The translations under genes were made by a program, and so were the position numbers. Below the pieces are notes generated by a model. It did no database searches and had not been told where the DNA came from. It saw only the letters and a list, made by a program, of their open reading frames with translations. 64,000 nt of DNA from Gigantopelta aegis. Taxonomy: Eukaryota. The DNA lies in the NCBI RefSeq assembly GCF_016097555.1, contig NW_024532772.1, positions 3,754 to 67,753 on the forward strand. Reading direction: 5' to 3'. This document shows positions 1,691-55,335 of this stretch, in pieces (positions within the stretch are counted from its first letter, which is position 1; each line of letters starts with the position of its first letter).

Positions 1691-2701
<1,011 letters not shown>

Positions 2702-5700: not shown

Positions 5701-5789
5701 ATCAGAGTATCCTGATCCATTATTCAATATCAGGTTGCTATAACGACAGACCCAAACTGTTTGCTGATTGTGTGTTACATAACAATTCA

Positions 5790-22120: not shown

Positions 22121-22394
22121 TACTAACTGTTTAATGTAACGTGATATAACTGTACATTGTTGAATTATAGCTACTAGCAACTTACTGTCTATTCATTAAT
22201 GACACTGAGAAAGATTCATCATTCATTTTATTGATCAGTAAGTGGATTTATCATTAGCATTACTATTAGAATATTAGTAAATTTGTATTTAATAATTTAG
22301 TGATTTTACAACTAACTACTATAAAAACTGATAAAATAGTTTTCCTTGAGTGTAGTTTATATTATTGTTTTATAATTCATTTACAGTTCATATA

Positions 22395-30227: not shown

Positions 30228-30267
<40 letters not shown>

Positions 30268-30720
30268 CTTCCTCTCTCTCACCTCTCTCTCTCTCTCTCT
30301 CATTCTTACCTGTGTTCCTCAGAAAGTCACCTAAACACTCGAGCTATGTCCATTAATACAGCTGTACCACTATTAGGATCAACTGCTCCAAATGTCCATG
30401 CATCATGATGATTACCTAACATAACAAGATGATCTGAGAAGAGAGAGAGAGAGAGAGAGAGAAAGATAGTAAGTAGTACAACAGTCACTATTGATCAACC
30501 TGGTTCTACTTTTCCATATATAACAGCAATACATTACTAATAGTCTCTTCCCTCTAATATATTATTTACTTGAAGGAAAATTAAACTATTAATAAACAAA
30601 GATAAACACACATTAGATCAGACATACTTTGTGTTACTAGTAGATTGATAGATATAGTAAGTGGTAATTTTAGTTCTCCCTTTCCATGACAAATGGAACT
30701 TCATATGTATCTAATTGACT
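28548..30720 (-). pseudogene. GCPII/NAALADase-like copy A: 3' two-thirds only, with frameshifts
   Basis: Collinear with 48350-50400 (- strand) and 53200-55335 (+ strand). Contains the [20 protein letters not shown] exon at 30320-30420 and the [15 protein letters not shown] exon at 30600-30700. Homology ends abruptly near 30720. Confidence 0.7.
30235..30300. repeat. (TC)n microsatellite in a GCPII intron. A (GA)n run lies at 30440-30466 on the other side of the same exon
   Basis: Read directly. The same intronic positions carry GA/TC runs in copies B and C. Confidence 0.9.
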
Positions 30721-31619: not shown

Positions 31620-32165
31620 TTACCAGTCTACTCTTAATTAAATACTTTATATGTACTGTGACATTGCGATAGGTAGTGTTCTCAATACCAGTCCGCAGTT
31701 GTCAATATTTGCTGTGACATAGCGATAGGTAGCGTTCTCAATACCAGTCTCAGTTGTCAATATTTGCTGTGACATACGACTGTTAGTGTTTCTCAATACT
31801 AGTCACATTGCCTAATATCTGTTAGGAACATAGTGACTTTTAGTGCTCCCAATACCAGTGTCGATCACCCTCAACATCTACTGTGACATAACAACTATTA
31901 CTTTTCTAATACGAGTTGCAATTGCCTTAATATCTACCGTACACGTGACATAGCGACTGTTAGCATTCGCAATAACCGGTCTCTATTGCCTCATATTTGT
32001 TTGGGAACATAGTTGCTTGTAGTGCACACAGTACCAGTCTCAATTCCATTGATATCTTCTGTACCATAGCAACTGTTAGTTTTCTTAAAATGAGTTTACA
32101 ATTGCTTACATCTGCTGTGACATAGCAACTGTTACTGTTCTTATTACCACTGTCATTCTTGACTT
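31620..32165. repeat. Minisatellite: ~57 bp unit x ~9 (taccagtctcagttgtcaatatttgctgtgacatagcgataggtagcgttctcaa)
   Basis: Read directly. Lies upstream of the unit 6 DD exon. Confidence 0.85.
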
Positions 32166-32214: not shown

Positions 32215-35200
32215 ATGTCTGATAATATCAGTCCATCTACTGTTAATCTTTTATGTCATGAACTGGAAGAAATATATGATGGGAAAAACTAGCAGTATAT
32301 CTCAATTTACCTAATCCTGTTATTCAGGATGCTAAAGTTCGTTATCCACATGGAGGCATTTGGGAGTTCAAAATGCATTGTCTACAAAAATGGCTAAAGC
32401 AAACCAACACTGTACATTCATGGAGTACTATAGTTAGTGCAGTAGAAAAGTGGATAGTAGTGTTGCTGAGCATATCAAAACAAAGTATGCTACTATTCTA
32501 GATCAAGTGCTAACTACTTCACAAAAAGAAGAACAATTAATTGTAACTGAAGGTCCAACTAGCACACATGATCCCATGATTAACAACCTAGAACAAATAC
32601 CATCAACTTCATCAAATATGACCAACATTCAACTAGTAACTCTAGAATTGAAGAAGAAAACACCATTAAAAGAGGTAGTTGAAAAAGAGGTAGTTGAACA
32701 GATTCTTAATTTAGAAGACAAATTTGCTATGTTAGTTTCAAAAACGCAGACATCTTTTGAGCAAAACCAGAAATTCTTTTACCATTACTTCGGTACTTGA
32801 AAGAACGTGAAATAGATGTCAAAACTTCACCAGATGAAGCCCAATGTATTACATATAGCAGAGTATTTGATATACTACACACACATTGGAATTATCTCAA
32901 ATGCCGACTTCTAGAAAGAATAATTCATAACTTTCTTTATGACACTGAATTACCACTTGAAGTACAGAAATATCAGATGAAATAGAAGTTTTTTAAAAAG
33001 TTAACGAAAATGAAAGATCTTATCAACAATATAAAACCATTATACCAAGTAAAGTGAAGGTTGTATTGAAAGTAAATGAAATGTGGCTAGATGTCACATT
33101 AGAGCATTTTGAGTCTCTTGTAAAGCTCCTTTTTGAAGAATATGCAGATTCTCTTTATGTCACTTCTGTCAAAAAAGGTTGTAGTGTGTTTGTGTGGAGT
33201 GTTCCTGAAGTCATAGCTTTCTTCATGCTGACAGTGAGATTGTCCAGACTTGAAAATGAAATGTTAAAAGCAATTGGAGTCATCTCACTAACATAGGTAC
33301 TATTGTAGCCCTTTAACAATGAAGACTCGCAGATGATATGACATTTGACTCAGGTCTTGTTGAGGAGCTGTTCAATCTGATGGTCCTCTTTCTGCTATAT
33401 CTCTTACTTCTTGAAGTAGATGGTAATCCTAACCTACTAACACAGTCAGGAGAAACAATAATATCTACTGTATCTAAAATGAAAAGTATTGATGGTACTA
33501 CAGCATTGTACATAGCTATTGATATGGTTACTCTTTTGTTGTCTCCTCATTACTTAGTAATAGAGCAAATCCTAACCTTATAGTTCAGAAAGATGGTGCA
33601 ACACCTTTATGGCAGCCAGTCAAAATGGTCATGCAGATATTGTTGAACTATTATTAGAGAAGGATTTTCCAATAAATACCCAAGACAGAATGGAGTAACA
33701 GCTATTTGTTTGGCTAGTCAGAATGGTCACACTTCTGTCGTTTCTATTTACTTCGCAATGGAGCAATATCCTAACTTAACTAGTAATTGAAGGTGCAACA
33801 CACTCTTATGGTAGCCAGTGGAAATTGGTCATGGTGAGTATCGTTGAATTATTGCTAGAGAGAATGTTCCAATAAATACTCGAGCCAAAATGGAGTAACA
33901 CAGCCATTTATATGGCTAGCCATTGTGGCCACTCTTCTGTTGTTTCTATCTTACTAAGAATGGAGCAGACCTAATGTAGCTAGAAATGACGGGTTTGACA
34001 CCTCTTATGTAGCCCAGTTTTTCCTGGTAGTGGTGATGTTGTTGAATTATTGCTAGAGAAGAATGTTCCAATAAATACCAAGAGCCCAAAATGGAGCAAC
34101 AGCCATTTATGTTGGAGCCAAATGGTCCCCCATTCCTTCTGTTGTTTCTATCTTACTTTAACATGGAGCAGACCCTAAACTAGCTGCTAAAAATGGTGCA
34201 ACACCTCTGATGGTAACCAGTGAAAATGGTCATGATGATATTGTTAAATTATTACTAGAGAAGAATGTTCAATAATACTCGAGCCCAAAATGGAGTAACA
34301 GCCATTTATATGGCTAGCCATGTGGCCACTCCTTCTGTTGTTTCTATCTTACTTAAGAATGGAGCAGACCCCTAATGTAGCGAAAATGACGGTTTGACAC
34401 CTCTTATGGTAGCCATTTCACGGTAGTGGTGATGTTGTTGAATTATTGCTATAGAGAAGAATGTTCCAATAAATCCCAAGATAAATATGGAAGAAACAGC
34501 CACTCTCTGCAAGTCAGAATGGTCATTCTTCTATCATTTCTATTTTACTTGCCAATAGTGCAGACCCTAACCTAGCTGATAATGATGGGTTGTACACCTT
34601 TCTTATGATAGCCCGTGATAATGGTCATGGGTGATATCGTTGAATTATTATTAGAGAAGAGTGTTCCATGTCAATACTCAAATCAAAAAGGAAAATACAG
34701 CCATTTATTTTGCTAGCCAGAATGGTCATTTTCTTCATTTCTATTTTTACTTAGCCATGGTGGCAGGACTCCTAACCTAGCTGATAACAATGGTGCAACA
34801 CCTCTTATGGTTGGCAAGTTATAATGGTATGGTGATATCGTTGAATTATTATTAGATAAAGAATGTTTTAATAAATCCCCAAGCCAAAAAATGGAGCAAC
34901 AGCAATTTACTTTTGCTAGCCAGAAAGGTCATTCTTCTGTAGTTTCTATCTTACTTACCAATGGTGCAGACCCTAACCTAGCTGATAATGATGTTGCAAC
35001 ACCGCTTATGATAGCCCCATTTGAATAATGGTCATGGTGATATCATTGAATTATTATTAGAAAGGATGTTCCAATAAATACCCAAGCCAAAAATGGAGCA
35101 ACAGCAATTTACTTTGCTAGCCAGAAAGGTCATTCTTCTGTAGTTTCTATCTTACTTACCATGGTGCAGACCCTAACCTAGCTGATAATGATGGTGCAAC

Positions 35201-36010
35201 ACCTCTTATGATAGCCAGTCAAAATGGTCATGGTGATATCATTGAATTATTATTAGAAAAGGATGTCCCAATAAATACCCAAGACAAAAAAAAAACAAAA
35301 TGGAGTAACCGCTATTTATGTGGCTAGCCAAATGGTCATTCTTCTGTAGTTCTATTTTACTTACAATGGTGCAGATCTTAACGTAGCTGATAACATTGGT
35401 GAAACCCGCTTATAATAGCCCGTCAAAATGGTTTTATGGTGACATCATTGAATTATTATTACTAGAAAAGAATGTTCCCATAAATACCCAAATGAAAATG
35501 GAATATCAGCCATTTATATTGCTAGCCAGAATGGCCATTCTTCTGTTTGTTACTACTTAATTACTATGGGGCAGACCCTAACCTAGCCAGGACCAATGGT
35601 TGGACACCTCTTATAATAGCTTCTGCTAGTGGATATGATGATTGTGAGAGAGTTTATTGGAAGCTCAAGTTGATATTAATTATCAAACTCCTACTGGGCA
35701 CTACAGCATTACATTTTTGTAGTTATTATGGATATAAAAATATAGTTATACAGTTATTGGAACATGGTGCTAATCCACTTATACGAAGACAATTCAGTTT
35801 TGACACCACGAGATATAGCTTATCAACAAGTCGTCATGACATTGTATGCACTACTTCTTCAAAAAGCTGAAGCTGTTTCCATGACGATGATCAAGTGTCA
35901 TTGGCTGATGATCATTCTTACACAAGTTGTGGACTATCAACTGACTACTCATCATTGCAGAACATGATGATATGTGCACGATGTCAGATCTAGAGGATGA
36001 TGATAAGGTA
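32215..36010 (+). pseudogene. Unit 6: DD-like exon (type B, frameshifted), linker, middle region, ~23 ANK repeats, C-terminal region ending in a GT donor
   Basis: MSDNISPSTVNLLCHELEEI at 32215. ORFs at 32450 and 32797 (SPDEAQCITYSRVFDILHTHWNYLKCRLLERIIHNFL). ORF at 33054 (MWLDVTLEHFESLVKLLFEEY). ANK relics at 33400-35600. ORF 35547 (TGTTALHFCSYYGYKNIVIQLLEHGANPLIRR). ...DLEDDDK|gtaaat at 36010. Confidence 0.65.
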
Positions 36011-36829
36011 AATTTAACAAACTAATAAGGAATACTAATCCTAATAATAAATAGAACACTATTAATTACCTATAAATTAGACATGAATTAGTGTTGCCCT
36101 TTATAAAACATTCAACTAAACAATATGATGAAAAGTCATATATATATAAGTTACTATGTTGTTAACTAATAATTTTTATAATGTTTAATGCATGTTTTCC
36201 TTTTATAATCACAAGTCACCAGATAGGAGATACAAACTTAACATTAATTATTTATGTTCGTTTATACATATTTGTAATTAAATAATTACTGATATAGTAT
36301 GGAGTGTTATATTTTTTATTATATGATAACATATTCTAACTCTAATATTTGAGACCATTACATCACTTATCATACAAGTCAGTTATATCCAGTAGGGCAT
36401 TTCCCTCTACTATAACTGACTAATAATAAAGTGATTAAAGAAATGTTTTATGAATAATGAGAATACTGTATGCCACAAGAACTGCTGGAAAACAAAAATT
36501 GTAATATTTAGTAAAATAACAAGAAAATATTCAAAATAATGTCAAAAAGTTATCAAAAATCAAAATACCAAACTGTTATTCTGTTACTAAATCTTTTTTA
36601 TGTAATATTGTTATAATAAGTTTCATTCAGAAACTTCAAAGTCACAATAGTTCACACAAAATGAAAACAATACTGGTCACTGGTTGATCATAATTTATGT
36701 AGTATAGCCATACATGGATAGCCAGCAGAATGATCACAGTGATGTTGATGAGTAAATTAGAAAGTTTTGATAAAAGCAATGTTGTTATAAATTGTAGCAA
36801 TACTTTTTTTTTTTTGCTTCTTTCTGCAG

Positions 36830-36898
36830 GACAATTATCAAGAGTCATTAGCAGGTCCTGTTGATTCAGGTTATGTAACTGGTAGATTAATCAACTAA
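36830..36898 (+). pseudogene. Terminal coding exon DNYQESLAGPVDSGYVTGRLIN* after acceptor ..tttctgcag
   Basis: Polypyrimidine tract plus AG acceptor. Homologous to the contiguous tail of unit 4 (20890-20990). The block 36830-38320 is a duplicate of 20900-22390. Confidence 0.5.
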
Positions 36899-37249
36899 CT
36901 GCTCATTGTCAGTAGCCTCTGAGTCATTGCAAGTTGATATAAGGGAACCGAGAAACATTTCCATCTCTACCCATCATTGAATGACACAAATAGATATTCT
37001 TAATTTTTGCATACCTATGAATTTTTTAATTTTACCTTTTAAATATTTGCATTGTTGCTATGCTCTTGACATGTTGATGATTTTAATAATAATTATATAT
37101 TTATTGTTAGTAATATGAACACTAATAGTTAGTTTGGTACAATACTTTCTCTACTTACAAAGCAATGACACTGATTTTTCTGGCAAAATACCTGCTTCAT
37201 TACTGATGAAAGCAGATCATTATATATAATATAATACATCAATACATTA

Positions 37250-37330
37250 ATACAGTTTGTACCACTATTAGGATCAACTGCTCCAATGTCCCATAGCATC
37301 ATGATGAATACCTAATATAAACTAGTTTGA
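37250..37330 (-). pseudogene. Isolated relic of the GCPII zinc-ligand exon
   Basis: Matches 21330-21440 and 50070-50110. Confidence 0.5.
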
Positions 37331-37859
37331 TTTTATCTAGCAGTCTAGTCTACTAGGGGATAATATTTATAAGTATGTGGTATGAATAATATGTTATAGA
37401 CACCCAAAACACACCTTTTAAGTGCAACCACTGATTCTAGCCTCACATTAGAGTGACCCAATTGAGTAGGCGTTAGGAATGTCTGTGATGTGGTTTCTTG
37501 AAACTATGTCCAATGTGGGTGGTGTATATCGTCAAGAAATGTAATAAGTCCCCACCTCCTATTTTTGTGCAAAGCGGTCTGTTATTACGGTAAGCTCTTT
37601 AACATTTCTCATATTTACTTATTTTTAACCTTAAAACGATTTGAACTAGGAAGCAAAAGTTACTGTCTTAAGATAGTAGGACTGTTGTTGTAAAGGTCTG
37701 TTCTTCTCTATTCTCTTCGAGCGCTCTCTTCTCTGCCACTGTGCATGTTGCACTATAAGGCAAACTAAGCTTATTAGTAATTGAGAAATATGCTTGCTAC
37801 TTCTGTCAATACTAATACTAGTTGTTTCATAATATTATCAATACTTAGAGGTATGTTTA

Positions 37860-38050
37860 GTGACTTTTAGCGATTCTTATTACCATCTACTCTTGACTCA
37901 ATTATCTCAATATCTATTGTGATATAGTGACTGTTAGAGTTCTTGTTTCAGTTCACCCTTAAGTCAATTACCAATCTGCTCTTATCTCATATATCTATCG
38001 TGTGGTGACACAGTGACTGTAGTATTCTTACTACCATTCACTCACTTCAG
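37860..38050. repeat. Minisatellite-like array related to 21910-22120
   Basis: Motif ctcaatatctattgtgatatagtgactgttagagttctt. Confidence 0.7.
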
Positions 38051-38316
38051 TATTTACTAACTGTTAATGTAATATGATATAACTGTTTCAATATTATAGC
38101 TACTACTAACTTACTGTCTATTCATTAATGACACTGAGAAAGATTCATCATTCATTTTATTGATCAGTAAGTGGATTATCATTAACATCACTATTAGAAT
38201 ATTAGTAATTTGCATTTAATGATTTAGTGATTTTAACTACTACTATAATAACTGATAAAATAGTTTCCTGAGTATAGTTTATATTATTGTTTTGTATTTC
38301 ATTTACAGTTCATACA

Positions 38317-41300
38317 ATGTCTGATAATCTCCGTCCACCTACTCTTGATCTACTGTGTGATGAGCTAAGGCAAGTAGTTGAATGGGATCAAGTAGCTGTA
38401 AGTCTCAAAGTATCTTATGTGGATATAAAAGTATTGAGACACAATATTCTGAATAGCCACAGCGCAAAATGCATTCTTTACAAAAATGGCTAGATCAAAC
38501 CAACACTGTACATTCATGGCATACTATAGCTGATGCAGTAGAAAAAGCAAAAATCCTGCAGTTGCTGAGAACATTAGAACAAAGTATGCTACTATTATAG
38601 ATCTAGTACCATCCACCTCACAACATGAAAAATCTAGCGATGTAAAAAATGAGCATAATCCAACTAGTTACTTTATGAATAAAGAGCAACAAGGTATTAC
38701 ACTAAATCAAAGCCACAGTGTAAGAATGTAGCGTAAATGATGACCAACATCAAGTTATTATTGAAGAGCAGCAAATCATTCAGTATCTTCAAATTCACAG
38801 CATGAAGAATCTAGTGATACGCTCAATGACAATTATACAACCAGTACTAGTGATATCATTGAACAGCAACAATTAATGGAGAGTGGAGTAAAGCTTGAAA
38901 GAAATATAGTGCAAGAAATCATTGACTTTCTTGAGAGATTTGCAGCATTAGTTTCAGAAACTCAAGCATTTTTTAGAAGAAAAAACCAAAAATTCTTTTA
39001 CCTTTTTATCGATACTTAAAGATTCTAATAGGTGAAGCATTACCAGATGAATCTGGCATCACATATGACAAACTATTTAATATGCTAGATAACCATTGGC
39101 ATTATCTCAAATATCAACTTCTTCAAAGAATAATTAAACGATTTCTTCCGACACTGAATTGCCTTATGAAGTACAAAAATATCAAGATGATATAGTAGCA
39201 TTTAAAAAGTCAACGAAAATGAGAGATCTTGTAGATAATGTGAGATCAAAAAAGAGCATATCAGGTAATGTACAAGTAGCATTGACAGTGGAGGAAGTAT
39301 GGCTAGAGGTCACATTAGAGCATTTTGAGTTTCTAGTAAAACTACTTTTTCAAGAATATGATAAGTCACTTCAAATTGTAGTTGTTCAAGGAGGTAGCTT
39401 GTATATTGCTTGGAGTCTTTCCAAAGCTTTCCTTCTTACAAAATCCAAATTTGACTACAAAGTGCTAAGGGCAATTGGAGTCATCTCACTAATAGTAGGT
39501 ACTATTGTAGTCTTTAACAATGAAGACTCACAAGATGATATGACTATTGACTCAGTCTGTTGGGAGCTATTCAATCTGGTGGTCCTCTTTCTGCTATATC
39601 TCTACTTCTTGAAGTAGGTGGTAATCCTACCTACTAACACAGTCAGGAGAAACAGTGATATCTACTTTATCTAAAATAAAAAATGATAATGGTACCACTG
39701 TGTTACATGTTGCTAGTAAATATGGTCACTCTTCAGTTGTTTCTACCTTACTTAGCAATGGGATAGATCCAAACGTAGTTATGAATAATGGTTGTACGCC
39801 TCTTATGCTAGCTAGTCAGGATGGCCATGATGATGTCATTCAACTGTTACTGAAGTCAAACGTAGCAATAAATACCCAAGGCAAAAATGGAATAACAGCA
39901 AATTATATTGCAAGTCAGAATGGTCACTTTTCTGTTGTTTCTACCTTGCTTAGCAAAGGGGCAGATCCCAACTTAGTTAACAATGATGGCTGGACACCTC
40001 TTATGGCAGCTAGTAAAAATGGTCATAATGATGTCATTGAGATACTACTTTAAAAAAAGGGTATTATGACAAATACCCAAAACAAATATGGAAGAACAGC
40101 CATTTATATCGCTACCCAGAGAGGTCACTCTTCTGTTGTCACTCTCTTACTTAACAATGGGGCAGATCCCAACATAGTGACAATGAAGGCTGGACACCTC
40201 TTATGGTAGCCAGTTTAAATGGTCAACTGATGTCTTTGAGATACTACTAGAGAAAAATATTCCAGTAAATACCCAAAACAATAAGGGAATAACAGCCATT
40301 TGTATCGCTAGTCACCATGGTCACTCTTCAGTTGTTTCTACCTTACTTAACAATGGGGCAGATCCTAATGTAGCTACAAATGATGGTTGGACACCTCTTA
40401 TGACAGCCAGTATAAATGGTCATATGATGTCATTGAGATACTACTAATAATAATGTTTAGTAAATACCCAAAACAATTATGGAAGAACAGCCATTTTATT
40501 GCTAGCCAGAGTGGTCACTCTTCTGTTGTCGCTTTCTTACTCAACAATGGGGCAGACCCTAATTTACCTGATAATGAAGGTTGGGCACCTCTTACGATAG
40601 CCAGTCAAAATGGACATGGTGATGTAATTGAGATATTACTAAGGAAGAATGTTCCAGTAACACCCAAACAAAAAGGGAATAACAGCTATTTGTATGCTAG
40701 CCACCATGGTCACTCTTCTGTTGTCTCTATGTTACTTAGCAATGGGGCAGATGCCAACCTAGCTATGACCAATGGATGGACACCTCTTATGGCAGCCAGT
40801 CAAAATGGTCATGCTGATGTTGTTGAGATACTACTTAACAAGAATGCTCTAGTCAACACCCAAAACAATTATGGAAAAACAGCCATTTATATTGCTAGCC
40901 AGAATGGTCACTCTTCTGTTATTACACCTTACTTAGAAATGGAGCAGACCTTAATTTACCTGGCAATGATGGCTGTACACCTCTTATGGTAGCCAGTCAA
41001 AGTGGTCATGCTGATGTCATTGAATACTACTGGAGAAAAATGTTTCATTAAATACCCAAACAAAGAAGGAGCAACGGCTATTTGTATGGCTAGCTACCAT
41101 GGTCACCTTCCTGTTGTCGCTATGTTAATTAGCAATGGAGCAGATGCCAAAATAGCCGATAATGATGGCTGGACACCTCTTCTGGTAGCTAGTCTAAATG
41201 GTCATGATGATGTCATTAAGATACTACTAGAAAATAATGTTCTAGTAAATACCCAAAACGAAAAAAGGATAACTGCTATTTATATTGCTAGTCAGAGTGG

Positions 41301-44300
41301 TCACTCTTCTGTTGTTTCTACCTTGCTTAGCAATGGGGTAGATCCCAGCCTAGCTACGAGTGATGGCTGGACACCTCTTATGGCAGCCAGTCAAAATGGT
41401 CATACTGATGTTATTGAGATATTACTTAATAAGAATGTTCTAGTAAACACTCAAAACAATTACGGAAGAACAGCCATTTATATTGCTAGCCAGAATGGTC
41501 ACTCTTCTGTTGTTTCTTCCTTACTCAAGAATGGGGCAGATCCTAATTTATCTGACAATGATGGCTGTACACCTCTTATGGTAGCCAGTCAAAATGCTGA
41601 TTATGATGTCATTAAGATACTACTAGAGAAGTATGTTTCACGTAAATATCCAGAACAAGGAAGGAGAAACAGCTATTTGTATTGCTAGCCACCATGGTCA
41701 CTCTTCTGTTGTTTCTACCTTACTTAGCAATGGGGCAGACCCCAACATAGCTGACAATGATGGCTGGACACCTCTTATGGTAACCAGTCTAAACAGTCAT
41801 GGTGATGTCATTAAAAAACTATTAATGAAAAATGCTACAGTAAATGCCCAAACTAAAAAGGGAATAACAGCCATTTATATTGCTAGCCAGAATGGTCACT
41901 TTTCTGTTGTTACTACCTTACTTAGAAATGGGCAGATCCCAGCCTAGCTACAAGTGATGGCTGGACACCACTTATGGCAGCCAGTCAAAATGGTCATGCT
42001 GATGTCGTTGAGAAATTACTTAAAAACAACGTTTTAGCAAATACTAAAAACAATTTTGGGAAAACAGCTATTTATATTTCTAGCCAGAGTGGTCACTCTT
42101 CTGTTGTCTTTTCCTTACTCAACAATAGTGCAGACCCTACTCTACCTGACAATGATGGCTATACACCGCTAATGGTAGCCAGTCAAATGCTCATGATGAA
42201 GTCATTAAGATACTACTAGAGAAGTATGTCCAGTAAATACCCAAAATAAGAAGGACAAACAGCCATTTATATTGCTAGCCACCATGGTCTCTCTTTTGTT
42301 GTCTCTATCTTACTTGGCTTTGGAGCAGATCCCAACATAGCTGACAATAATGGATGGACACCTCTTATGATAGCCAGTGTAAACTCTTATGGTGATGTCA
42401 TTGAGATACTTCTAGAGAATAATGTTCCAGTAAATACCCAAAACAAAAAGGGAGTAAACACCTATTGTATTGCTAGCCAGAACGGTCACTCTTCTGTTGT
42501 TTCTACCTTACTAAGAAATGGGGCAGATCCCAACTAGCTGCAAATGATGGCTGGACACCTCTTATGGCAGCCAGTCAAAATAGTCATGCTGATGTTATTG
42601 AGATATTACTTAATAAGAATGTTCTAGTAAACACCAAAAACAATTATGGAACAACAGCCATTTATATTGCTAGCCAGAATGGTTGCTCTTCTGTCGTATC
42701 CTCCTTACTTAACAATGGGGCAGACCCTAATTTACTGACAATGATGGCTGTACACCTCTTATGATAGCTATTGAAAAAGGTCATAGTGATATCATTAAAT
42801 TATTATTAAAGCACAGGGCACCGATAAATACCCAATCCAAAGATGGAGAAACTGCAATTTATTTTTTTAGCAAGACTGGTCATTCTTCTGTTGTTTCTAC
42901 CTTACTTAGCAATGGTGCAGATCCTAACTTAGCTAACAATAATGGCTGGACACCTCTTATGGCAGCCAGTAGAAATGGTCATAGTGATGTCGTTTTAAGA
43001 TACTATTAGAGAATAATGTTCTAGTAAATGCACAAACCGAAAAGGAGTAACGGCCATTTGTATTGCTAGTCACCATGGTCACTCTTCTATCATTTCTATC
43101 TTACTTAACAATGGGGCAGATCCCAGCTTAGCTGACAATGATGGATTGACATCTCTTATGGCAGCCAGTGGAAATAGTCATAGTGATGTTGTTAAGATAC
43201 TATTAGAGAATAATGTTCTAGTAAATGCACAAACCGAAAAGGAGTAACGGCCATTTGTATTGGTAGTCACCATGGTCACTCTTCTATCATTTCTATCTTA
43301 CTTAACAATGGGGCAGATCCCAGCTTAGCTGACAACGATGGCTTGACATCTCTTATGGCAGCCAGTGGAATGGTCATAGTGATGTTGTTGAGTTATTATA
43401 GAGCAGAATATTTCAGTAAATACTCAAACAAATAATGGAAGAACAGCCATTTATATTGCTAGCCAAAATGGTTACTCTTCTGTCATCTCGTTCTTACTTA
43501 GCAATGGTGCAAACCCTAATATACCTGACAATGATGGTTGTACACCCTTATGGTAGCCAGTAAAAATGGTTACATTGATGTCATTAAGATACTACTACAG
43601 AATAATGTTCTAATAAATACCCAAAATGAAGAAGGAGTAACAGCTATTTGTATTGCTCGCCATCGTGGTCACTCTTCAGTTGTTTCTATCTTACTTAACA
43701 ATGGGGCAGATCCCAACACAGCTACAAATGATGGCTGGACACCTCTTATGGCAGCCGTGTAAATGGTCATACAGATGTCATTGAAATACTACTTAATAGA
43801 AATGCTCCTAGTAAACATCCAAAACAATTATGGAAGAACAGCCATTTATGTTGCTAGCCAGAGTGGTCACTCTTCTGTTGTCTCTTCCTTACTTAACAAT
43901 GGGGCTGACCCTAATTTACCTGACAACGAAGGTTGGATACCTCTTATGATAGCCAGTCACAATGGTCATGGTGATGTCATTGACATACTACTTAATAAAA
44001 ATGTTCTAATAAATACCAAAAACAAATATGGAAGAACAGCCAATTTATATCGCTACCCAGAGTGGTCACTCTTTTGTTGTCTCTACCTTACTTAGCAATG
44101 GCGCAGATCCCAACATAGCTGACATTGAGGTTGGACACCTCTTATGGCAGCCATTGTAAATGGTCATGTGATGTGATGGAGATACTATTAAAGAGAAATG
44201 TTCCAGTAAATACCCAAACCAAAAGGGGAATACAGCCATACGTATTGCTAGTCACCATGGTCATTCTTCTGTTGTTTTCTATCTTACTTAACAATGGAGC

Positions 44301-47300
44301 AGATCCCAACCAAGCTGACAATGATGGCTGGACACCTCTTATGACAGCCAGTATAAATGGTCATGCTGATGTCATTGAGATACTACTTAATAATAATGTT
44401 TTGTAAATACCCAAAAACTATTATGGAAGAACAGCGATTTTTATTGCTAGCCAGAGTGGTCACTCTTCTGTTGTCTTTTCCTTACTCAACAATGGGGCAG
44501 ACCCTAATTTACCTGATAATGAAGGTTGGACACCTCTTATGATAGCCAGTCAAAATGGTCATGGTGATGTCATGGAGATACTGTTAGAGAGAAAATGTTC
44601 CAGTAAATACCCAAACCAAAAGAGGAATAACAGCCATATGTATTGCTAGTCACCATGGTCATTCTTCTGTTGTTCTATCTTACTTAACAATGGGGCAGAT
44701 CCCAATCTAGCTGACTATGATGGCTGGACACCTCTTATGATAGCCAGTGTAAATGGTCATGCTGATGTCGTTGAGATACTACTTAATAAGAATGTTCCAG
44801 TAAATATCCAAAACAATTATGGAAGAACAGCTATTTATATTGCTAGCCAGAATGGTTGCTTGTCTGTTGTCTCTGCTTACTCAACAATGAGGCAGACCCT
44901 AATTTACCTGACAATGAAGGATGGACACCTCTTATGAGAGCCAGTCAAAATGGTCATGATGATGTCATTGAGCTACTACTAGAGAAGACTGTTCCATTAA
45001 ATACCCAAAACAAAGAAGGAATAACAGCTGTTTGTATTGCTAGCTATCGTGGTCGCTTTTCTGTTGTCTCTAAATTACTTAGCAATGGAGCAGATCCCAA
45101 CATGGCCGACAATGATGGCTGGACAACTCTTCTGGTAGTTAGTCTAAATGGTCACGGTGATGTCATCAGGATACTACTAGAGAATAATGTTACAGTAAAT
45201 ACCCAAACCAATAAGGGAATAACGGCCATTTATATTGCCTGTCAGAGTGGTAATTCTTCTGCCATTTCTACCTTACTTCACAATGAAGCAGATCCCAACC
45301 TAGTTGACAATGATGGCTGGACACCACTTATGATAGCTAGTGTGAATGGTCATACTGATGTTGTTGATTTACTACTTAATAAGAATGTTCCAGTAAATAC
45401 CCCCAAAACAATTATGGAACAACAGCCATTTATTTGCTAGCCAGAATGGTTGTTCTTCTGTTGTATCCTCCTACTCAAAAATGGGGGCAGATCCTAATTT
45501 ACCTGACAATGATGGCAATACACCTCTTATGATAGCTATTGAAAAAGGTCATAGTGATGTCATTCAGTTGTTATTGAAGCAGAAAGTACCAATAAATACC
45601 CAATCTAAAGATGGAGAAACTGCAATTTATTTTTTTAGCAACTGGACTGGTCATTCTTCTGTTTCTGTTGTTTCTACCTTATTACTATTAGCAATGGTGA
45701 AAGATCCTAACATAGCTATGAACAATGGCTGTACACCTCTTATGATAGCTACCTCTTATGAAAAAGGTCATAGTGATGTCATTCAATTTTATTAAAGCAG
45801 AAAGTACCAATAAATACCCAATCTAAAGATGGAGAAACTGCAATTTATTTTTTTAGCAAGACTGGTCACTCTTCTGTTGTTTCTACCTTACTTAGCAATG
45901 GTGCAGATCCTAACATAGCTATGAACAATGGCTGTACACCTCTTATGATAGCTATTGAAAAAGGTCATAGTGATATCATTCAATTATTATTAAAGCATAA
46001 GGTACCAATAAATACCCAATCTAAAGATGGGAGAAACTGCAATTTATTTTTTAGCAAGACTGGGTCACTCTTCTGTTGTTTCTACCTTACTTTAACAATG
46101 GTGCAGATCCTAACATAGCTATGAACAATGGCTGTACACCTCTTATGATAGCTATTGAAAAAGGTCATAGTGATGTCATTCAATTATTATTAAAAGCATA
46201 AGGTACCAATAAATACCCAATCCAAAGATGGAGAAACTGCAATTTATTTTTTTAGCAAGACTGGTCATTCTTCTGTTGTTTCTACCTTACTTAACAATGG
46301 TGCAGATCCTAACATAGCTATGAATGATGGCTGGACACCTCTTATGGCAGCCAGTCAAAGTGGTCATAATGATGTCATTAAGTTACTACTAGAGAAGAAT
46401 GTTCTATTAAATACCCAAAACAAAGAAGGAGTAACAGCTATTTGTATCGCTAGTCACCATGGTCACTTTTTCTGTTTGTTTCTACCTTACTTAGCAATGG
46501 GGCAGATCCCAACATAGCTGACAATGATGGTTGGACACCTCTTATAGTAGCCAGTCTAAATGGTCATACTGATGTCATTGAGATACTACTAGAGAAGAAT
46601 ATTCAAGTAAATACCCAAACCAATAAGGGAATAACGGCCATTTGTATTGGTAGTCACCATGGTCACTCTTCTATCATTTCTATCTTACTTGACAATGGTG
46701 CAGATCCCAACCTAGCTGACAATGATGGTTGGACACCTCTTATGACAGCCAGTATAAATGGTCACGCTGATGTCGTTGAGATACTACTTAATAAAAATGT
46801 TGTAGTAAACATCCAAAACAATTATGGAAGAACAGCCATTTATGTTGCTAGCCAGAGTGGTCACTCTTCTGTTGTTTCTTCCTTACTTAATAATGGGGGT
46901 GACCCTAATTTACCTGACAATGATGACTGGACACCTCTTATGGCAGCCAGTGGAGGTGGTCATGGTGATGTTGTTAAATTATTACTAGAGAACAATGTTC
47001 CAATAAATACACAAAACAAAAATGGAGCTACAGCAATTTTATATTGCTTGCTTGACTGGCCACTCTTCTGTCATTACTATTTTAATAACAATGGAGCAGA
47101 TCCTAACTTAGCCAGGACTAATGGCTGGACACCTCTCATGATAGCCTGTGCCAAAGGACATGACAATGTTATAAGAGAGTTATTAATGACCCCAAATTAA
47201 TATCAATCATCAAACTCCTACTGGTACTACAGCATATATCTTTCTAGTCAATATGGATATGAGATATTGTTAGACAGCTACTGAATGGTGGTGCTAATCC

Positions 47301-47587
47301 ACTTATAAGAAACATGTCAGGCATGACACCACTAGATAGAGCTTATCAAAAAGGTCATCATAACATTGTATCACTACTTCAAGAAAACTATACGTGGTTT
47401 CCACGACGACAGTGATCAAGCATCATTAGCAGGTTCTATTGAGTCAGGCTACACAACTGGTGTACTATCAACTGATCACTCATCAGTAGTAGACTCTGAT
47501 GTTGGACAGATATCTGATCTAGAAGAAGACAATCCTCAACTCCCAATTAAACTAGCTGGTAAGGTTTATGTAATCAAGAACTTGTGA
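38317..47587 (+). CDS. Unit 7: best-preserved DD-ANK family gene. DD-like N-terminus, linker, middle region, ~75 ankyrin repeats, C-terminal tail ending ...ISDLEEDNPQLPIKLAGKVYVIKNL*. Open frames are interrupted every 200-700 bp, so it is either a young pseudogene or an intact gene broken by sequence errors
   Basis: MSDNLRPPTLDLLCDELRQVVEWDQVAVSLKVSYVDIK at 38317. 39159 ORF (152 aa; EVWLEVTLEHFEFLVKLLFQEYDKSLQIVVVQGG...LRAIGVISLIVGTIVVFNNEDSQDD). ANK ORFs of 132-228 aa at 39655, 40387, 41002 and 44856. Terminal ORF 47366-47587. Repeat consensus DGWTPLMAASQNGHxDVVEILLNKNVPVNTQNNYGRTAIYIASQNGHSSVVSTLLNNGADPNLADN. Confidence 0.5.
39650..47200 (+). other. Ankyrin-repeat array of unit 7 (~76 x 33-aa repeats)
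   Basis: 99-bp periodicity of the GHSSVVS...ADPN...DGWTPLM motifs across 7.5 kb. Confidence 0.75.
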
Positions 47588-48349
47588 GAGCCAATATCTA
47601 ATAATGTTACACTAAACTAATTTGATTTAAAATAATACATTAATAACATCTGATCACTTCACAGAGCAGACTCTGATGTTGGTCAATTGTCAAATATAAA
47701 GGAATACCATGATGATACTCTCTTCTTACACTGAACCAAGCACACTAAGACAAGAGATATAATGTAAGAAAAACAATAAAGTACTTATTTCCAGTTAATG
47801 CAATGTTAATAATGATAAGATAGAATTTCAATTGAACTTCAATAACTGATGTCTCTAATTGAAAATTTCAAAAAGCATTCTGTAAACATAATGTGTATTA
47901 ATCAATTCATTAGTTATAAAGCACATTACATTGACTGTAATAGAAACAATGATCATTGTAATACAAAGAAGTATCTAGAAGGATCTTGTAATAATAGTTT
48001 AATAATTTAAATATTTAATTATATTTCATATATTTAGGGACAAACTCACCTGACACAGTTACTGAAATATATTTTCAAAATGAACATATTCATAAACATA
48101 CTGATACTTTAATTATTAATGTTTTGTTATGTTATTGTATCTTGTTAATTAATTATTTGTATTAATTAAAATCCATATTTATGAAACTACATTGCTTGAA
48201 ATCTGAATACTAAATAACATATTATAGCGGACTTGTTTACAAATAATTATTGTTTAATTATTATAATATGATATGGTGTGTTTTACATTTTTGTATAATT
48301 ATAATAACAAAAGTTTATAATACTTCAGATGTAATTAATTAATTAATTA

Positions 48350-51010
48350 ATTAACCCATTTAATACTGGGTTGATTCATAATTTGTTGTAGCATAGCGTA
48401 CATGGATAGCTACTATATCCAGCTGATGATGTACTTCATTCCAAATTTCTAATGTTGTAGCATTAAAGATACTATCTACTACTCCTGGAAAAGAAGCACC
48501 TTCATATGAATTGACTGAACTAGGAGCAAATATAACATGTCTGTATGGAGAAAGAAAGAGAGGAATGAGATATTAAGGTTTAAATGAATGGATGGATAGA
48601 GAAAAGAATGGACAGATAGAAGGATCAACCATTGTTCTTAAGTGAAGTACATGTATATCGGAGTATTTGTTACTTACTTATAAGATGGTCGTCCTGGTAA
48701 TCCTTCTCGGTTGAAAATAAATGATTCTCTCTATATTCATTAGTTTATTGTTAAGTATTCTGACTATATTCTCACTACATACAGAGGACAAAGATATAGT
48801 TAATAACTACTGGAATATTATACTAACTTGTCTGTGTCAGCATATTTTATGAGTGTATTATGAAGATGGTAGCAGCTGTGAAAAGTCAGTTAAACAAGAG
48901 TAAAGGAACTCTATAGAACAAATAACCATTATTAATACAATAATTTATATGATCTCTTATCATTAACTAATATACTAATATAATATATATAACATGTAAG
49001 AGTTAATATGACATATTATAATATATATGTATATATAGGAGGACATCTTACCAGTTGATATATTATGATGTTGGAATTGACTACCATATGTTGTCTGTAA
49101 TCATTATATAGTTCCATTAATCTCTCTGAATAATCAATTGGATTGTAAGGAAGAATGGGGTGTGTTGATAGTGCCATGGCAACAGTTAACACACCTCTCC
49201 TAATGCTGTATATGATGTGTGAAGTCAGGATCACCAAAATGACTCATCCATAAAAATTATCATGAACAGAATGATAGACAAAATAATGGTAGCTATTCTA
49301 AATGGATTGATAAATTCAATTAAATGAATAAATACATTATTAGAATGGATGGGCATGATACCTGGTAATCTATGTCACAGCTAGTCACTCCAAGACTCTG
49401 AATAAAGAAAGTAAAGTCACTCGCAGAGCTCAAATTATTTATCCTATTAAATAAACAAATCACATGATAATCATGTGTCAATTACATATACCTTGGTTTT
49501 GAAGATTTGGAGTGGTTCTTCCACTGTTCATAGACTGTCTGGAAATCATTACAAGGACAAGCTACCTAGAGGACAAATGTCATCTTGGATAAGATTAATG
49601 TACACTAACTTGTTTTGTAGCATTGTAAATAGATTCATATAACAGTGGACTACTAGAAGCTGAAAAAGATTCCATTCCTATATTAAAAAATAAAACTATA
49701 TATCATTAAATCTCTTGAATAGTTATATAATTATAATATTATTATTATTATTATAAATGTAATCAAGTCTTTACCTTCTACAGCTACATCTACATTAAGA
49801 TAAGCCATAGCATTTGCTCCTAATAACTTCTCTACATCCTATATATAATATAAATAATATATTATATAACTATTTGTATATAATATACCTCACACTACTC
49901 TGTAGAACCAATCAAACCATATTTCTCAGCATCCCAACTACATAATACTACTGTTCTACCTGGTCTCCAACCTTTAAAATATAGAATTCTTCTTCTCTCT
50001 CTCAGTCATTCTTACCTGTGTTCCTCAGGTCACCTAACACTCGAGCTATGTCCATTATGCAGCTGTACCACTATTAGGATCAACTGCTCCAAATGTCCAT
50101 GCATCATGATGATTACCTACATAACAAGATGATCTGAGAAGAGAGAGAGAGAGAAATATAGTAAGTAGTACAACAGTCCCTATTGATCTACCTGGTTCTA
50201 CTTTTCCATAAATAACAGCAAATACATTACTAATAGTTCTTCTCTCTAATATATTATTTACTGAAGGAAAGTAAACTATTAACAAACAAAGATAAACACA
50301 CATTAGATCAGACATACTTTGTGTTACTAGTAGACTGATAGATATAGTAATTGGTAATATTTAGTTCTCCCTTCCATGACAATGGAACTTCATATGTATC
50401 TAATTGACTAAAGAGAGAAACATACAGACATTTATTATTATTATATATAGTTACTTCATAAAATGGACAGCATCTCCATAAGATATTGGTTGAACAGGTA
50501 TAGCAGGAACATCACCAGATCTGATAAAACATCTTCATAAGACCGACGATATACTTCATCTGAAAGAGAACAGAGATTATAAGGACAATGACAAACAAGG
50601 TAGTTAGCACCAACTGCTGGTATTCCAGGAGTAAGAGGATCTCCACTTGATATCATAACTGACCCTCGTTGTAACCCTCAGGAGGAAGACTAGGACCATT
50701 AGGGTAGACAGGGGGACCTCCTTTGGGAGCAACATCTGCTGGATCAGAGTATATGATTAATCCAGTACATCGAATCTTTGAGCTAAATGAGCCTGTTAAA
50801 GATATAAAGTGCTATCCTACAGACACAGACTCATTCCAAAAAGTAAAAGTATTAAATTATGAAACTTATGATACCTTATCTCCCCTGTATATCCTACCAT
50901 ATCTTGCTATACAAATATGACCAGTAATGTTTAGACTTAAATTTTTAGTAATATAATCAAAGTCTTTAAATTGTGCATAATTTACATAAACCAGAGGTCC
51001 CTAAATTAAA

Positions 51011-51063
<53 letters not shown>

Positions 51064-51630
51064 TTTAGCGCAAGATAAATAATTGCTTACTTCAGCTGAT
51101 CCAATCCTGAATAACTATTAAAAGGAGGAGGGGACATCAGTGTCATTTTCTCCTGGTGTCAGGGGAGGGTTCCTGCCTGTTTCTGCAGTGTAGAGGACAT
51201 CTTTGTCATCATTAAGAACCTTTAGTACATTGTAGTTGCTGCGATTTACATAACTCAATAATACACTATAATTTGTCATCTCTACAAGATCAAAATTATT
51301 TTGTGAGAAAGACTGATAAATGAGGTTAGCAATATCTTTATTTTGTTCCTTGCCAGCAATATGAGGTCTGGCAGTAAGTTGTCTATCAGAGAAGTATTAA
51401 TAATTATGATCAGTTTAATCTTGTAACACTTTACCTTAAAATTCTTTTTATTTATTTGAATCCAAACTTTCAGACACATAGTCTCCTATTGCTGAGACTG
51501 ACCATTAACAGTACAATAGCACCCCATGAGTTAACTGCAGGTCAGTAGACTCATTAATACTCCATCCTAGTAGGAAACCAGCCCCAAAACTGGTACAAAG
51601 TAACAATACTACACTGATAATGGCACAAAT
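48350..51630 (-). pseudogene. GCPII/NAALADase-like copy B: inverted 5'-truncated duplicate of copy C. Lacks the start codon and cytoplasmic tail, and carries frameshifts
   Basis: - strand ORFs: 49016 ([19 protein letters not shown]), 50055 ([26 protein letters not shown], then a stop caused by a missing T), 50456 ([12 protein letters not shown]...[11 protein letters not shown]). Exon GPLVYVNYAQFKDF...[18 protein letters not shown] at 50940-51010 is intact. Homology to copy C stops at 51630 after the TM-coding segment. A 1-bp deletion lies inside the TM exon. Confidence 0.75.
51013..51060. repeat. (GA)n microsatellite in a GCPII-B intron
   Basis: Read directly. Confidence 0.9.
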
Positions 51631-52350
51631 TTTACAGAGGATATACTTGGACTTTTTAGATGATTTTTTAGATGGCAATATGTGAATTCTTTTTGGATAG
51701 GGAGCAGCTCATCCGAACTATGATCATCGGCCATTATAGTATACGGACAAAAGTACTATTTATATTGCATTACATTTCAGTATAAATTTCAGAATGTTTC
51801 CGTATTCTTCCGCATACTAATCGCAGCTGATTTTATATAATAATTATATCGATTATTAGTTTGTAGTGCAATGGCCGATAAAGGTGGACTATTAGATGAT
51901 GACAGAACGAACGAGTTGGGCTCTATCAAAAAAGAGGACCATCCATTACAATCTAAAAGATCGCTTAAAAAGTCCAGACATATCTTCAGTCTAGTTTGTG
52001 CCATTATCTGTGTAGCATTGTTGCTTTGTACCAGTTTTGGGGCTGGTTTCCTACTAGGATGGAGTATTAATGAGTCTACTGAACCTGCAGTTAACTCATG
52101 GGGTGCTATTGTAACTGTTAATGGTCAGTCTCAGCCAATAGGAGACTATGTGTCTGAAAGTTTGGATTCAAATAAATAAAAGAGAATTTAAGGTAAAGTG
52201 TTACAAGATTAAACTGATCATAACTATTATTATTACTTCTCTGATAGACAACTTACTGCCAGACCTCATATTGCTGGCAAGGAACAAAATGAAGATGTTG
52301 CTAACCTCATCTATCAGTCTTTCTCACAACATTATTTTGATCTTGTAGAG
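51280..52350. repeat. Centre of the B/C palindrome. Inverted-repeat arms 51280-51630 and 52010-52350 flank a ~380 bp unique spacer that holds the copy C start codon
   Basis: Frame-shifted six-frame ORFs 51282-51479(-) and 52148-52348(+) translate to near-identical peptides ([26 protein letters not shown]...), which is the signature of an inverted duplication. Direct comparison shows about 95% identity. Confidence 0.85.
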
Positions 52351-55335
52351 ATGACAAATTATAGTGTATTATTGAGTTATGTAAATCGCAGCAACTACAA
52401 TGTACTAAAGGTTCTTAGTGATAATAAAGATGTCCTCTACACTGCAGAAACAGACAGGAACCTCCCCTGACACCAGGAGAAAATGACACTGATGTCCCTC
52501 CTCCTTTTAATAGTTACTCAGGAATTGGGATCAGCTGAAGTAACCAATTATTTATCTCATGCTAACTCTCTCTCTTCTTTCTCCTTTAGGGACCTCTGGT
52601 TTTGTAAATTATGCACAATTTGAAGATTTGATTATATTACTAAAAACTTAAGTTTAAACATTACTGGTCATATTTGTATAGCAAGATATGGTAGGATATT
52701 CAGAGGAGATAAGGTATGAGAAGTCTCATAATTTAATACTTCTAGTCTGTGAATGGGACTGTGTCTGTAGGATAGCACTTTATATATTAACAGGCTCATT
52801 TAGCTCAAAGATTGGATGTACTGGATTAATCATATACTCTGATCCAGCAGACTATGCTCCCAAGGAGGTCCCGCTGTCTACCCTAATGGTCCCTAGTCTT
52901 CCTCCTGGAGGGTTGCAACGAGGGTCGTTATGATAATAAATGGAGATCCTCTTACTCCTGGAATACCAGCAGTTGGTACTATTACCTTGTTTGTCATTGT
53001 CCTTATAATCTCGTTCTCTTTCAGATGAAGTATATCGTCGATCTTATGAAGATGTTATCAGATCTGGTGATGTTCCTGCTATACCTGTTCAACCAATATC
53101 ATATGGAGATGCTGTCCATTTTATTGAAGTAACTTATAATAATAATATAATAAATGTCTGTATGTTTCTCTCTTTAGTCAATTAGATACATTTGAAATCC
53201 CATTGTCATGGAAGGGAGAACTAAATATTACCAATTACTATATCTATCAGTCTACTAGTAACACAAAGTATGTATGTCTGATCTAATGTGTGGTTTATCT
53301 TTGTTTGTTAATAGTTTAACTTTTCTTCAAGTAAATAATATATTAGAGAGAAGAACTATTAGTAATGTATTTGCTGTTTTTATGGAAAAGGTAGAACCAG
53401 GTTAGATCAATAGGGACTGTTGTACTACTTACTATCTCTCTCTCTTTCTCTCTCTTCTTCCCTCTTTCTCTCTCTCTCACTCAGATCATCTTGTTATGTT
53501 AGGTAATCATCATGATGCATGGACATTTGGAGCAGTTTATCCTATAGTGGTACTGCTGTATTAATGACATAGCTCGAGTGTTAGGTGACCTGAGGAACAC
53601 AGGTAAGAATGAGAGAGGAGAGAGGAGAGAGAGAGAGAGAGAGAGAGAGAAGAATTCTATATTTTAAAGGTTGGAGACCAGGTAGAACAGTAGTATTATG
53701 TAGTTGGGATGCTGAGGAATATGGTTGATTGTTCTACAGAGTATGTTGAGGTATATATATACAAATAGTTATATATATATATTATTTATATTATATATAG
53801 GATGTAGAGAAGTTATTAGGAGCAAATGCTATGGCTTATCTTAATGTAGATTTAGCTGTAGAAGGTAAAGACTTGATTACATTTATATAATGATAATATT
53901 ATTATAATTATATAATTATAACAATTGATGTATTTAATGATATAATACTTTTATTTTCAATCTAGGAATGGAATCTTTTTCAGCTTCTAGTAGTCCATTG
54001 TTATATGAATCTATTTACAATGCCACAAAACAAAGTTAGTGTACATTAATCTTCTGTATTTATCCAAGATGACATTTGTCCTCTAGGTAGCTTGTCCTTG
54101 TAATGATTTCCAGACTGTCTATGAACAGTGGAAGAACCATTCCAAATCTTCAAAACCAAGGTATATGTAATTGTCACATGATTATCATGTGATTTGTTAT
54201 TTAATAGGATAAATAATTTGGGTTCTGGAAGTGACTTTACTTTCTTTATTCAAAGTGTGGGAGGTGGACCAGCTGTGATATAGATTAACAGGTACCATGT
54301 CCATCCATTTCTAATAATGTATTTGTCCATTTAATTTGAACTTATCAAGCCATTTTGTATTCATCAATCCATTTAGAATAGTTACGATTATTTTGTCTAT
54401 CATTCTGTTCATGACAATTTTTATTGGATGAGTCATTTTGGTGATCCTGACTTCACACATCATAAAGCATTAGGAGAGGTGTGGTTAACTGTTGCCATGG
54501 CACTATCAACCACACCCATTCTTCCTTACAATCCAATTGATTATTCAGAGAGATTAATGGAACTATATAATGAGTTACAGACAACATATGGTAGTCAATT
54601 ACAACATCATAATATATCACTGGTAAGATGTCCTCCTGATATATACATATATATTATAATATGTCATATTAACTCTTACATGTTATATATATATTATATT
54701 AGTATATTAGTTAATGACATAAGAGATCATATAAATTATTGTATTAATAATGTCATTTGTTCTATAGAGTTCCTTTACTCTTGTTTAACTGACTTTTCAA
54801 CAGCTGCTACCAATCTCATAATACACTCATAAAATATGCTGACACAGACAAGTAATAGTAATTCCAGTAGTTATTAACTATATCTTTGTCTCTGTATTGT
54901 AGTGAGAATATAGTTAGAATACTTAACAATAAACTAATGAATATAGAGAGATCATTTATTTTACCAGAAGGATTACCAGGACGACCATATTATAAGTAAG
55001 TAATAATACTCTATATATATGTACTTCACTAAGAAACAATGGTTGATCCTTCTATCTGTCCATTCTTTTCTCTATTCATCCATTCATTTATACCTTAATA
55101 TCTCTTTCTCTCTTTCTTTCTCCATACAGACATGTTATATTTGCTCCTAGTTCAGTCAATTCGTATGAAGGGGTCGTTCTTTTTTCCAGGAGTAGTAGAT
55201 AGTATCTTTAATGCTACACATTAGAAGATTGGAATGAAGTACATCATCAGCTGGATATAGTAGCTATCCATGTACGCTATGCTACACAAATTATGAATCA
55301 ACCCAGTATTAAATGGGTTAATTAATTAATTAAAC
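51871..55335 (+). CDS. GCPII / NAALADase-like copy C (M28 peptidase, transferrin-receptor family; type II membrane protein). Multi-exon with a start codon. Several exons carry 1-bp indels, so it may itself be a pseudogene
   Basis: Exon 1 ORF 51871-52179 gives MADKGG...cytoplasmic tail..[22 protein letters not shown] (TM)..ESTEP. Exon 2 (from about 52247) ...[19 protein letters not shown]...[14 protein letters not shown] matches GCPII HLAGTEQN...YDVLLSYPN. 52688 [22 protein letters not shown]...[10 protein letters not shown] matches GAKGVILYSDPADYFAPGV...LPGGGVQRGN. 52940- [12 protein letters not shown]|intron|[11 protein letters not shown]. 53510- [12 protein letters not shown] (zinc-ligand region, with indels). 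54428 [50 protein letters not shown]. 54890- [31 protein letters not shown]. Stop near 55333. Confidence 0.7.

Follow-up and report, generated by a model that had tools for sequence, protein, structure and literature searches.

The locus described here raises the question of whether a very long array of ankyrin (ANK) repeats, interrupted in the available sequence by many frameshifts, is a gene, the remains of one, or a gene that has been misread. The array occupies most of positions 38317-47587 of a 64,000 nucleotide (nt) stretch of contig NW_024532772.1 (assembly GCF_016097555.1, filed under Gigantopelta aegis), which we refer to as the window. A preliminary description made from the sequence alone had proposed a giant ANK gene, largely free of introns and the youngest of several arrays, in which the frameshifts might be sequencing errors. 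Our results show that 38317-47587 is a real single-exon, intron-free gene, and that it belongs, as a large representative, to a kind of gene that is already known rather than to a new one. The complete account that we favour is that of a real single-exon gene in a cluster of relatives, lesions that are mostly noise, a young null allele, and a protein with a death domain/ANK signalling role. Taken as a whole, we give this account a somewhat better than even chance of being correct.

The nature of the frameshifts can be judged from a second copy of the locus. A protein search with the N-terminal part of the gene returned only 17 relatives, all of them unnamed ENA proteins, including one, P0001, that is 92% identical. 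Through P0001 we reached ENA ERZ21830300 contig ctg715763l (hereafter L001), a public contig that covers this locus. Aligned globally over window positions 28819-50404 (21.6 kb), the two sequences agree at 21,288 positions and differ by 64 substitutions and 357 indel events, of which 314 involve a single base. With 0.3% substitutions and a substitution to indel ratio of about 1:5.6, this is the reverse of natural divergence. The bases absent from the window lie in runs of at least two identical bases in 75% of cases, compared with 45% of all bases, and the indel density in non-coding DNA and in a neighbouring paralogue, gene 3, equals that in the giant gene. The longest window open reading frame (ORF) in the region is the one at 41002-41688, whose 228 codons are the maximum given in the preliminary description. 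Compared with its own consensus, the window array has 63 indels, 59 of which break the frame; 56 of the 63 coincide with differences from L001, six form three compensating pairs, and one is common to both assemblies. Within 38317-47587 the window and L001 differ by 81 indels (79 frame-breaking) and nine substitutions. In L001, 79 of the 81 frame-breaking lesions of the giant gene are gone and two are left, so that the gene reads as ORFs of 186 (death domain), 575 and 2,347 codons. Gene 3 (window 32215-36025) serves as a control: it shows 99 indel differences, 98 of them frame-breaking, and in L001 it is one ORF of 1,262 codons (3367-7155).

Since long ORFs cannot arise through errors, the accurate copy is L001, and it is the window that is indel-noisy. 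The 79 lesions that disappear are shown to be sequencing or assembly errors, and the same caution probably applies to two further ANK arrays of the window, at 18381-20660 and 23806-27193. The earlier suggestion of sequencing error was therefore right for all but the two lesions that survive in both assemblies, and the expectation of one giant intron-free ANK gene is confirmed by the 2,347-codon ORF and by the uninterrupted frame of gene 3. Programmed frameshifting and an alternative genetic code can both be ruled out, as the lesions vanish in the better assembly. The protein collection holds no exact-sequence match for the window ORFs, nor for the L001 ORFs of 2,347 and 1,262 residues.

Two one-base repairs of the L001 copy yield a protein of 3,154 residues. 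It opens with the death domain (residues 1-94), followed by a linker rich in Ser and Gln, about 250 residues of middle region, 80 ANK repeats (459-3098) and an acidic tail. Both ends of the gene had been placed exactly in the preliminary description, 38317 being the ATG of the death-domain ORF and 47587 the last base of the TGA stop. In window coordinates the parts are:

38317-38597, plus strand: N-terminal death domain, residues 1-94 of the repaired protein, beginning at the ATG at 38317
38598-38881, plus strand: Ser/Gln-rich low-complexity linker, which holds the first lesion common to both assemblies
38882-39687, plus strand: middle region, matching no Pfam family, with a helical part, a small alpha/beta (ferredoxin-like) domain and an ANK-like capping segment
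39688-47414, plus strand: ANK array, 80 repeats in the accurate copy (L001), in exact 33-residue register
40494-40497, plus strand: second lesion common to both assemblies, with 1 bp deleted from ANK repeat 9
45511-46323, plus strand: young block of near-identical 198-bp units 30-34, of the type IAIEKGH/FFSKTGH
47415-47587, plus strand: acidic, Ser-rich C-terminal tail and TGA stop (47585-47587), from the L001 translation mapped onto the window

The death domain is recognised by Pfam PF00531 (Death) in the window copy at 22.8 bits, against a cut-off of 22.6 and after one frame fix. The match is also present in the L001 ORF P0015 (precomputed PF00531), and the paralogues score 28.3 and 31.2 bits. 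The domain has the six helices of the death fold, and the death domains closest to it are those of FADD, CRADD and PIDD. An AlphaFold model built from a 58-sequence alignment was usable (predicted local distance difference test score, pLDDT, of 81.8), while a model of P0002 from 15 sequences was too poor (mean pLDDT 57) and was set aside. The helical part of the middle region has six predicted helices. Pfam PF00023 (Ank) matches the window ORF 41002-41688 with E=5.8e-45, and Ank_2 matches the 2,347-residue L001 ORF with 1712 bits. There are no introns in the ANK array; gene 3 is without any, and P0002 and an orthologue of the giant gene described below also read straight through. A tail of the same kind as that of the giant gene is found in gene 3, which is intact.

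Tandem Repeats Finder reports a single array at 39722-47146, with a period of 198 bp (two 99-bp ANK repeats), 37.5 copies, 77% matches and a score of 6784. This bears out the roughly 7.5 kb of ANK periodicity noted previously, and the in-frame consensus of the array, GHSSVVSTLLNNGADPNLADNDGWTPLMVASQNGHGDVIEILLKKNVPVNTQNKNGITAIYIASQN (two ankyrin repeats), matches the one proposed then. Two repeat subtypes alternate, DGWTPLMxASxNGHxDVIEILLxKNVxVNTQN and xGxTAIYIASQxGHSSVVSxLLNNGADPNLxDN. The anchor spacing is exactly 33 residues over 79 consecutive repeats, and a hidden Markov model (HMM) made from the gene's own repeats finds 80 matches in the repaired protein, where about 75 repeats had been estimated. 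The extreme regularity first described is thus present in the length of the repeats and absent from their sequence: among the 39 two-repeat units the median pairwise DNA identity is 76.8%, with synonymous divergence (dS) of about 0.41 and a ratio of nonsynonymous to synonymous divergence (dN/dS) of about 0.58 between units. The only young ones are units 30-34, with 96.5-100% identity, and the pair 17/18, with 95.5%. No large-scale internal duplication of the array was seen when unit identity was averaged along diagonals. The array is very regular in length and mostly old, with recent amplification or homogenisation limited to about 1 kb. The earlier proposal of recent amplification or homogenisation accordingly applies to these units and not to the array as a whole, given the median identity, a dS of about 0.4 and the presence of the array in a related genome. 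In L001 the young block has five units; the window has about one unit less (~45664-45690; L001 16804-17014), which may reflect either repeat collapse in a noisy assembly or a genuine copy-number difference.

That related genome is represented by ENA ERZ21862620, in which contig ctg189295l (L003/L004, record 154134-178848) carries a syntenic cluster with a gene-3-like sequence, P0008, and a giant-gene ORF downstream. The orthologous ORF has 3,683 residues according to the collection's gene call, and the first 2,505 of them, which we read, contain no stop, the same N-terminus and 62 ANK matches. Over the N-terminal 458 codons the repaired gene and its orthologue share 91.6% nucleotide identity. 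Between them dN/dS is 0.23 in the death domain, 0.32 in the middle region and 0.40 in the first 20 repeats. Since these values range from 0.23 to 0.40, the comparison indicates that the giant gene has been under purifying selection. The giant array was already present in the related genome, at a dS of about 0.16-0.29. A transposon-borne or satellite origin of the array is ruled out by the frame kept across 80 units, by dN/dS below 1 and by the existence of the orthologue. In the related genome it is the gene-3 orthologue, P0008, that is split, into ORFs of 545, 256 and 353 residues, while the giant gene there is uninterrupted; the two genomes therefore do not have the same cluster member disabled. 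In the related assembly, a different contig (L002 13865-15730, minus strand) has a Roc/COR-A (ROCO-type GTPase) gene adjoining a truncated death-domain/ANK member.

The two lesions that remain in both assemblies bear on the state of the sequenced copy. The first lies in the linker (window ~38773-38782, L001 ~9898-9907), where a net gain of 2 nt relative to the orthologue takes the frame from 0 to 2 in both the window and L001, and one added A reopens it; between 38725 and 38969 there are no indel differences between the two assemblies. The second reads CCATTT-TATTG (window 40494-40497) at a place where the orthologue has CCATTTATATTG, with an additional A that completes a TAT codon. Among the frame-breaking consensus indels it alone is both unpaired and not a difference between the window and L001, and it splits the 575-residue from the 2,347-residue ORF. 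Both lesions are absent from the orthologue. Since neither resembles a typical homopolymer-length error and L001 has no other lesion in about 11 kb of coding sequence, we think that the sequenced haplotype does carry both. The 7,272 nt that follow the second lesion are still free of stops, which bounds neutral decay at about 1% divergence or less. We therefore infer that this copy of the giant gene is most likely an allele or pseudogene that was disabled very recently, and so is very young, the gene itself being otherwise under purifying selection.

Several considerations weigh against this reading. If the window and L001 share reads, the two shared lesions could be common errors, and the other haplotype may be intact. 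Several GT..AG pairs at the first lesion could restore the frame by splicing. The orthologue was read here for only 2,505 of its 3,683 residues, and the gene is known here from genomic sequence. It is therefore a serious, though less likely, alternative that the giant gene is intact and functional in this genome, the two residual lesions being shared errors, or confined to one haplotype, or, in the linker, spliced out as a short intron. Such a gene would agree with a 2,347-codon ORF that is wholly open downstream at 38% guanine plus cytosine (GC), and with an orthologue that is intact and under purifying selection; the two assemblies may not be independent, and the GT..AG pairs that restore the frame at the first lesion are many (41-269 nt). 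However, the second lesion falls in the middle of an ANK repeat with homology unbroken on both sides, so it cannot be an intron, and it is the loss of a lone A between T's rather than a homopolymer-length error. The first lesion is likewise a net change of +2 nt from the orthologue, in a family that is otherwise free of introns (gene 3, P0002 and the orthologue). With no other lesion in the 11 kb of L001 that comprise gene 3 and ORF C, two errors in 2.2 kb would be unusual, and frame-shifted tails also end other family members in the same kind of assemblies. We also sought a specific intron that would rescue the first lesion, and the enumeration of GT..AG pairs gave too many candidates to be informative.

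The young null allele that we favour belongs to a tandem cluster of paralogues, all on the plus strand, in AT-rich DNA of eukaryotic type (about 33% GC across the window). The members recognised in addition to the parts listed above are marked by the following features:

10986, 12730, 16778, 17162, 22395, 32215 and 38317, plus strand: death-domain starts in the window, the last being that of the giant gene
18381-20660, 23806-27193 and 33592-35620, plus strand: further ANK arrays in the window

The region 36778-50409 is a segmental duplicate of 20862-30720, with 86-88% identity and with the flanks also duplicated. Because the giant gene and the copy at 20862-30720 form one duplicate pair, neither is the younger, and the view of the giant gene as the youngest array member has to be abandoned. 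A neighbouring gene similar to GCPII/NAALADL1 has its best match in Amphimedon queenslandica (52%), followed by Ephydatia muelleri (46%) and Nematostella (35%). As this neighbour is closest to Amphimedon queenslandica and Ephydatia muelleri, the DNA carrying the giant gene is, judged by sequence similarity, that of a demosponge.

The architecture of the giant gene is shared by a large family, which we defined by a profile (A2) as an N-terminal death domain followed by a conserved middle region of about 200 residues and then by ANK repeats. The middle region is marked by the motifs HWHYLK, FKxSTKM, WLDVTLExFE and FDSALL. Among 1.84 billion representatives, the profile of the death domain plus middle region detects 874 proteins at E<=1e-3 and 200 at E<=1e-10; the L001 copy P0001 belongs to the family, matching the profile at E=4.5e-67. 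Of 58 sampled members, 38 have Ank and 29 Pfam Death, and the sole further Pfam family is a kinase, in one member. The number of ANK repeats varies across the family from about 15 to 96. Pfam scans of the gene pieces, of the intact gene 3 and of the 58 members detected no NACHT, NB-ARC or other nucleoside triphosphatase (NTPase) domain, and no ZU5 or UPA. None of the 20 family clusters that were looked up has a name or an annotated accession, and almost all members come from ENA assemblies. The literature that we searched provided general context only, and the death domain/middle domain/ANK architecture is not described there.

Comparison with known systems sets the family apart from each of them. 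The canonical ankyrins (ANK1/2/3 and UNC-44) have 24 N-terminal repeats, a ZU5-ZU5-UPA supramodule and a C-terminal death domain, whereas the giant gene has an N-terminal death domain, 80 repeats, an unrelated middle domain and no ZU5 or UPA detectable by Pfam, and so is not a canonical ankyrin. In NF-kB p100/p105, ANKDD1A/B and DAPK1 the death domain lies C-terminal to 6-10 ANK repeats, and RHD or kinase/ROC-COR domains are found; the Pfam scans place none of these domains in the giant gene. FADD, CRADD and PIDD, the adaptors of the death-inducing signalling complex (DISC) and the PIDDosome, are small or have DED, CARD or LRR-ZU5 partners, and none has an ANK array. Their likeness to the giant gene is in the sequence of the death domain, and assembly of the giant protein in a comparable way is a prediction. 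The NLR-type receptors (NACHT-ANK, NACHT-WD40 and NACHT-LRR) share with it an N-terminal death-fold effector, near-regular C-terminal repeats, gene clusters and turnover of units, but Pfam finds in the giant gene no NACHT, NB-ARC or other NTPase domain, so it is not an NLR.

Giant ANK proteins are already present in the databases, for example the 'uncharacterized protein' P0050 of Haliotis cracherodii (4,108 residues) and many ENA proteins of 2,000-3,700 residues. Their Ank_2 content is comparable: P0050 scores 1,363 bits over 36 stretches and P0038 scores 1,275 bits, where the 2,347-residue ORF reaches 1,712 bits. P0032, P0035, P0047 and P0067 have the same death-domain and middle-domain modules. 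These database proteins are, however, only 24-46% identical to the giant gene. When searched with the HMM of the giant gene's repeats, which is biased towards that gene, the next-best protein has 46 matches compared with 80. Amphimedon queenslandica possesses, besides its NLRs, about 460 death-fold genes of varied architectures that have been proposed to act as adaptors or effectors in innate immunity (PMC3879445). The giant gene comes from the same host lineage and fits the same theme, and PMC3879445 does not include the death domain/middle domain/ANK architecture.

The domains of the intact protein suggest how it may work. The long ANK solenoid would provide a scaffold for binding or sensing, and the death domain at the N-terminus would bring in further death-fold proteins through homotypic oligomerisation, as proposed from the domains themselves. 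Recognition would in this way be coupled to cell-death or innate-immune signalling. The length of the array changes as repeat units are gained and lost. We favour a signalling role over a structural housekeeping one because the genes form a tandem birth-and-death cluster, because repeat number ranges from about 15 to 96, and because demosponges are known to have many death-fold genes (about 460 besides the NLRs in Amphimedon). More speculatively, and with limited confidence, we suggest that these proteins constitute an unnamed, large, sponge-restricted family of cytosolic sensors or adaptors, an NTPase-less counterpart of the NLRs, in which the rapidly evolving number and sequence of the ANK repeats would determine specificity and the death domain would trigger signalling. 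If this is true, the giant gene and its 3,683-residue orthologue are extreme members. On the opposite side of the balance, a signalling or immune role is deduced here only from domain content and the dynamics of the cluster, and the most variable repeat positions (3, 5, 13 and 14 in subtype B, mainly 13 in subtype A) fit the canonical ANK binding surface only partly.

The intact protein could instead serve as an ankyrin-like scaffold of a structural or mechanical kind, for example a spring or a linker between membrane and cytoskeleton, with no part in immune or cell-death signalling. We consider this unlikely. ZU5, UPA, spectrin-binding, channel and transmembrane domains are all absent from the Pfam results. 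The N-terminal position of the death domain, and its closeness to those of FADD, CRADD and PIDD, also speak against such a scaffold. A birth-and-death cluster with variation in copy and repeat number and with truncated and frame-shifted members characterises conflict or immune families more than housekeeping scaffolds. Hardly credible at all is an old dead pseudogene in which every one of the roughly 60-80 window frameshifts is genuine and L001 represents another haplotype or paralogue, one that is intact: the window alone, with its 59 frame-breaking consensus indels and no ORF longer than 228 codons, would allow it, but the 357 indels against 0.3% substitutions (about 1:5.6) are the opposite of natural divergence, most of these indels are single bases within short homopolymers, their density is the same in the non-coding flanks and in a neighbour that is intact in L001, and the same window contains an artefact-like poly-C tract of 1,008 bases.

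The poly-C tract lies at 1692-2699 and consists of 985 C, 13 A, 8 G and 2 T. An artefact of sequencing or assembly is almost certainly the cause, which is consistent with an indel-noisy window. The GCPII/NAALADL1-like gene is present as a head-to-head inverted pair, at 48387-51624 (minus strand) and 51922-55319 (plus strand); the minus-strand copy is almost full and the plus-strand copy is about 90% identical to it over 2.2 kb. A tblastn search of the window with the Amphimedon GCPII protein exposed the inverted gene copies, and introns and errors were indistinguishable in it. Partial GCPII copies on the minus strand also lie between the death-domain/ANK genes, at 28577-30686 and 9595-9684, and each unit of segmental duplication therefore carries an ANK gene plus an inverted GCPII fragment. 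A 67/135-bp minisatellite (11 and 6 copies) occurs at 11622-12418, with a short related copy at 37858-38055 just upstream of the giant gene, and separate tandem repeats of 55 bp and 60 bp are found at 31649-31859 and 61038-61336.

The window carries about 1.6% single-base indels, and its other pseudogene, frameshift and short-ORF calls should be distrusted until they have been checked against a high-accuracy copy. On our interpretation, the locus provides a natural example of a very young null allele beside an intact orthologue. For the biology of sponges, it documents a conserved intron-free gene with 80-96 ANK repeats behind a FADD-like death domain, in a large and unannotated family, and it enlarges the known demosponge expansion of death-fold genes by a concrete architecture that can be tested.

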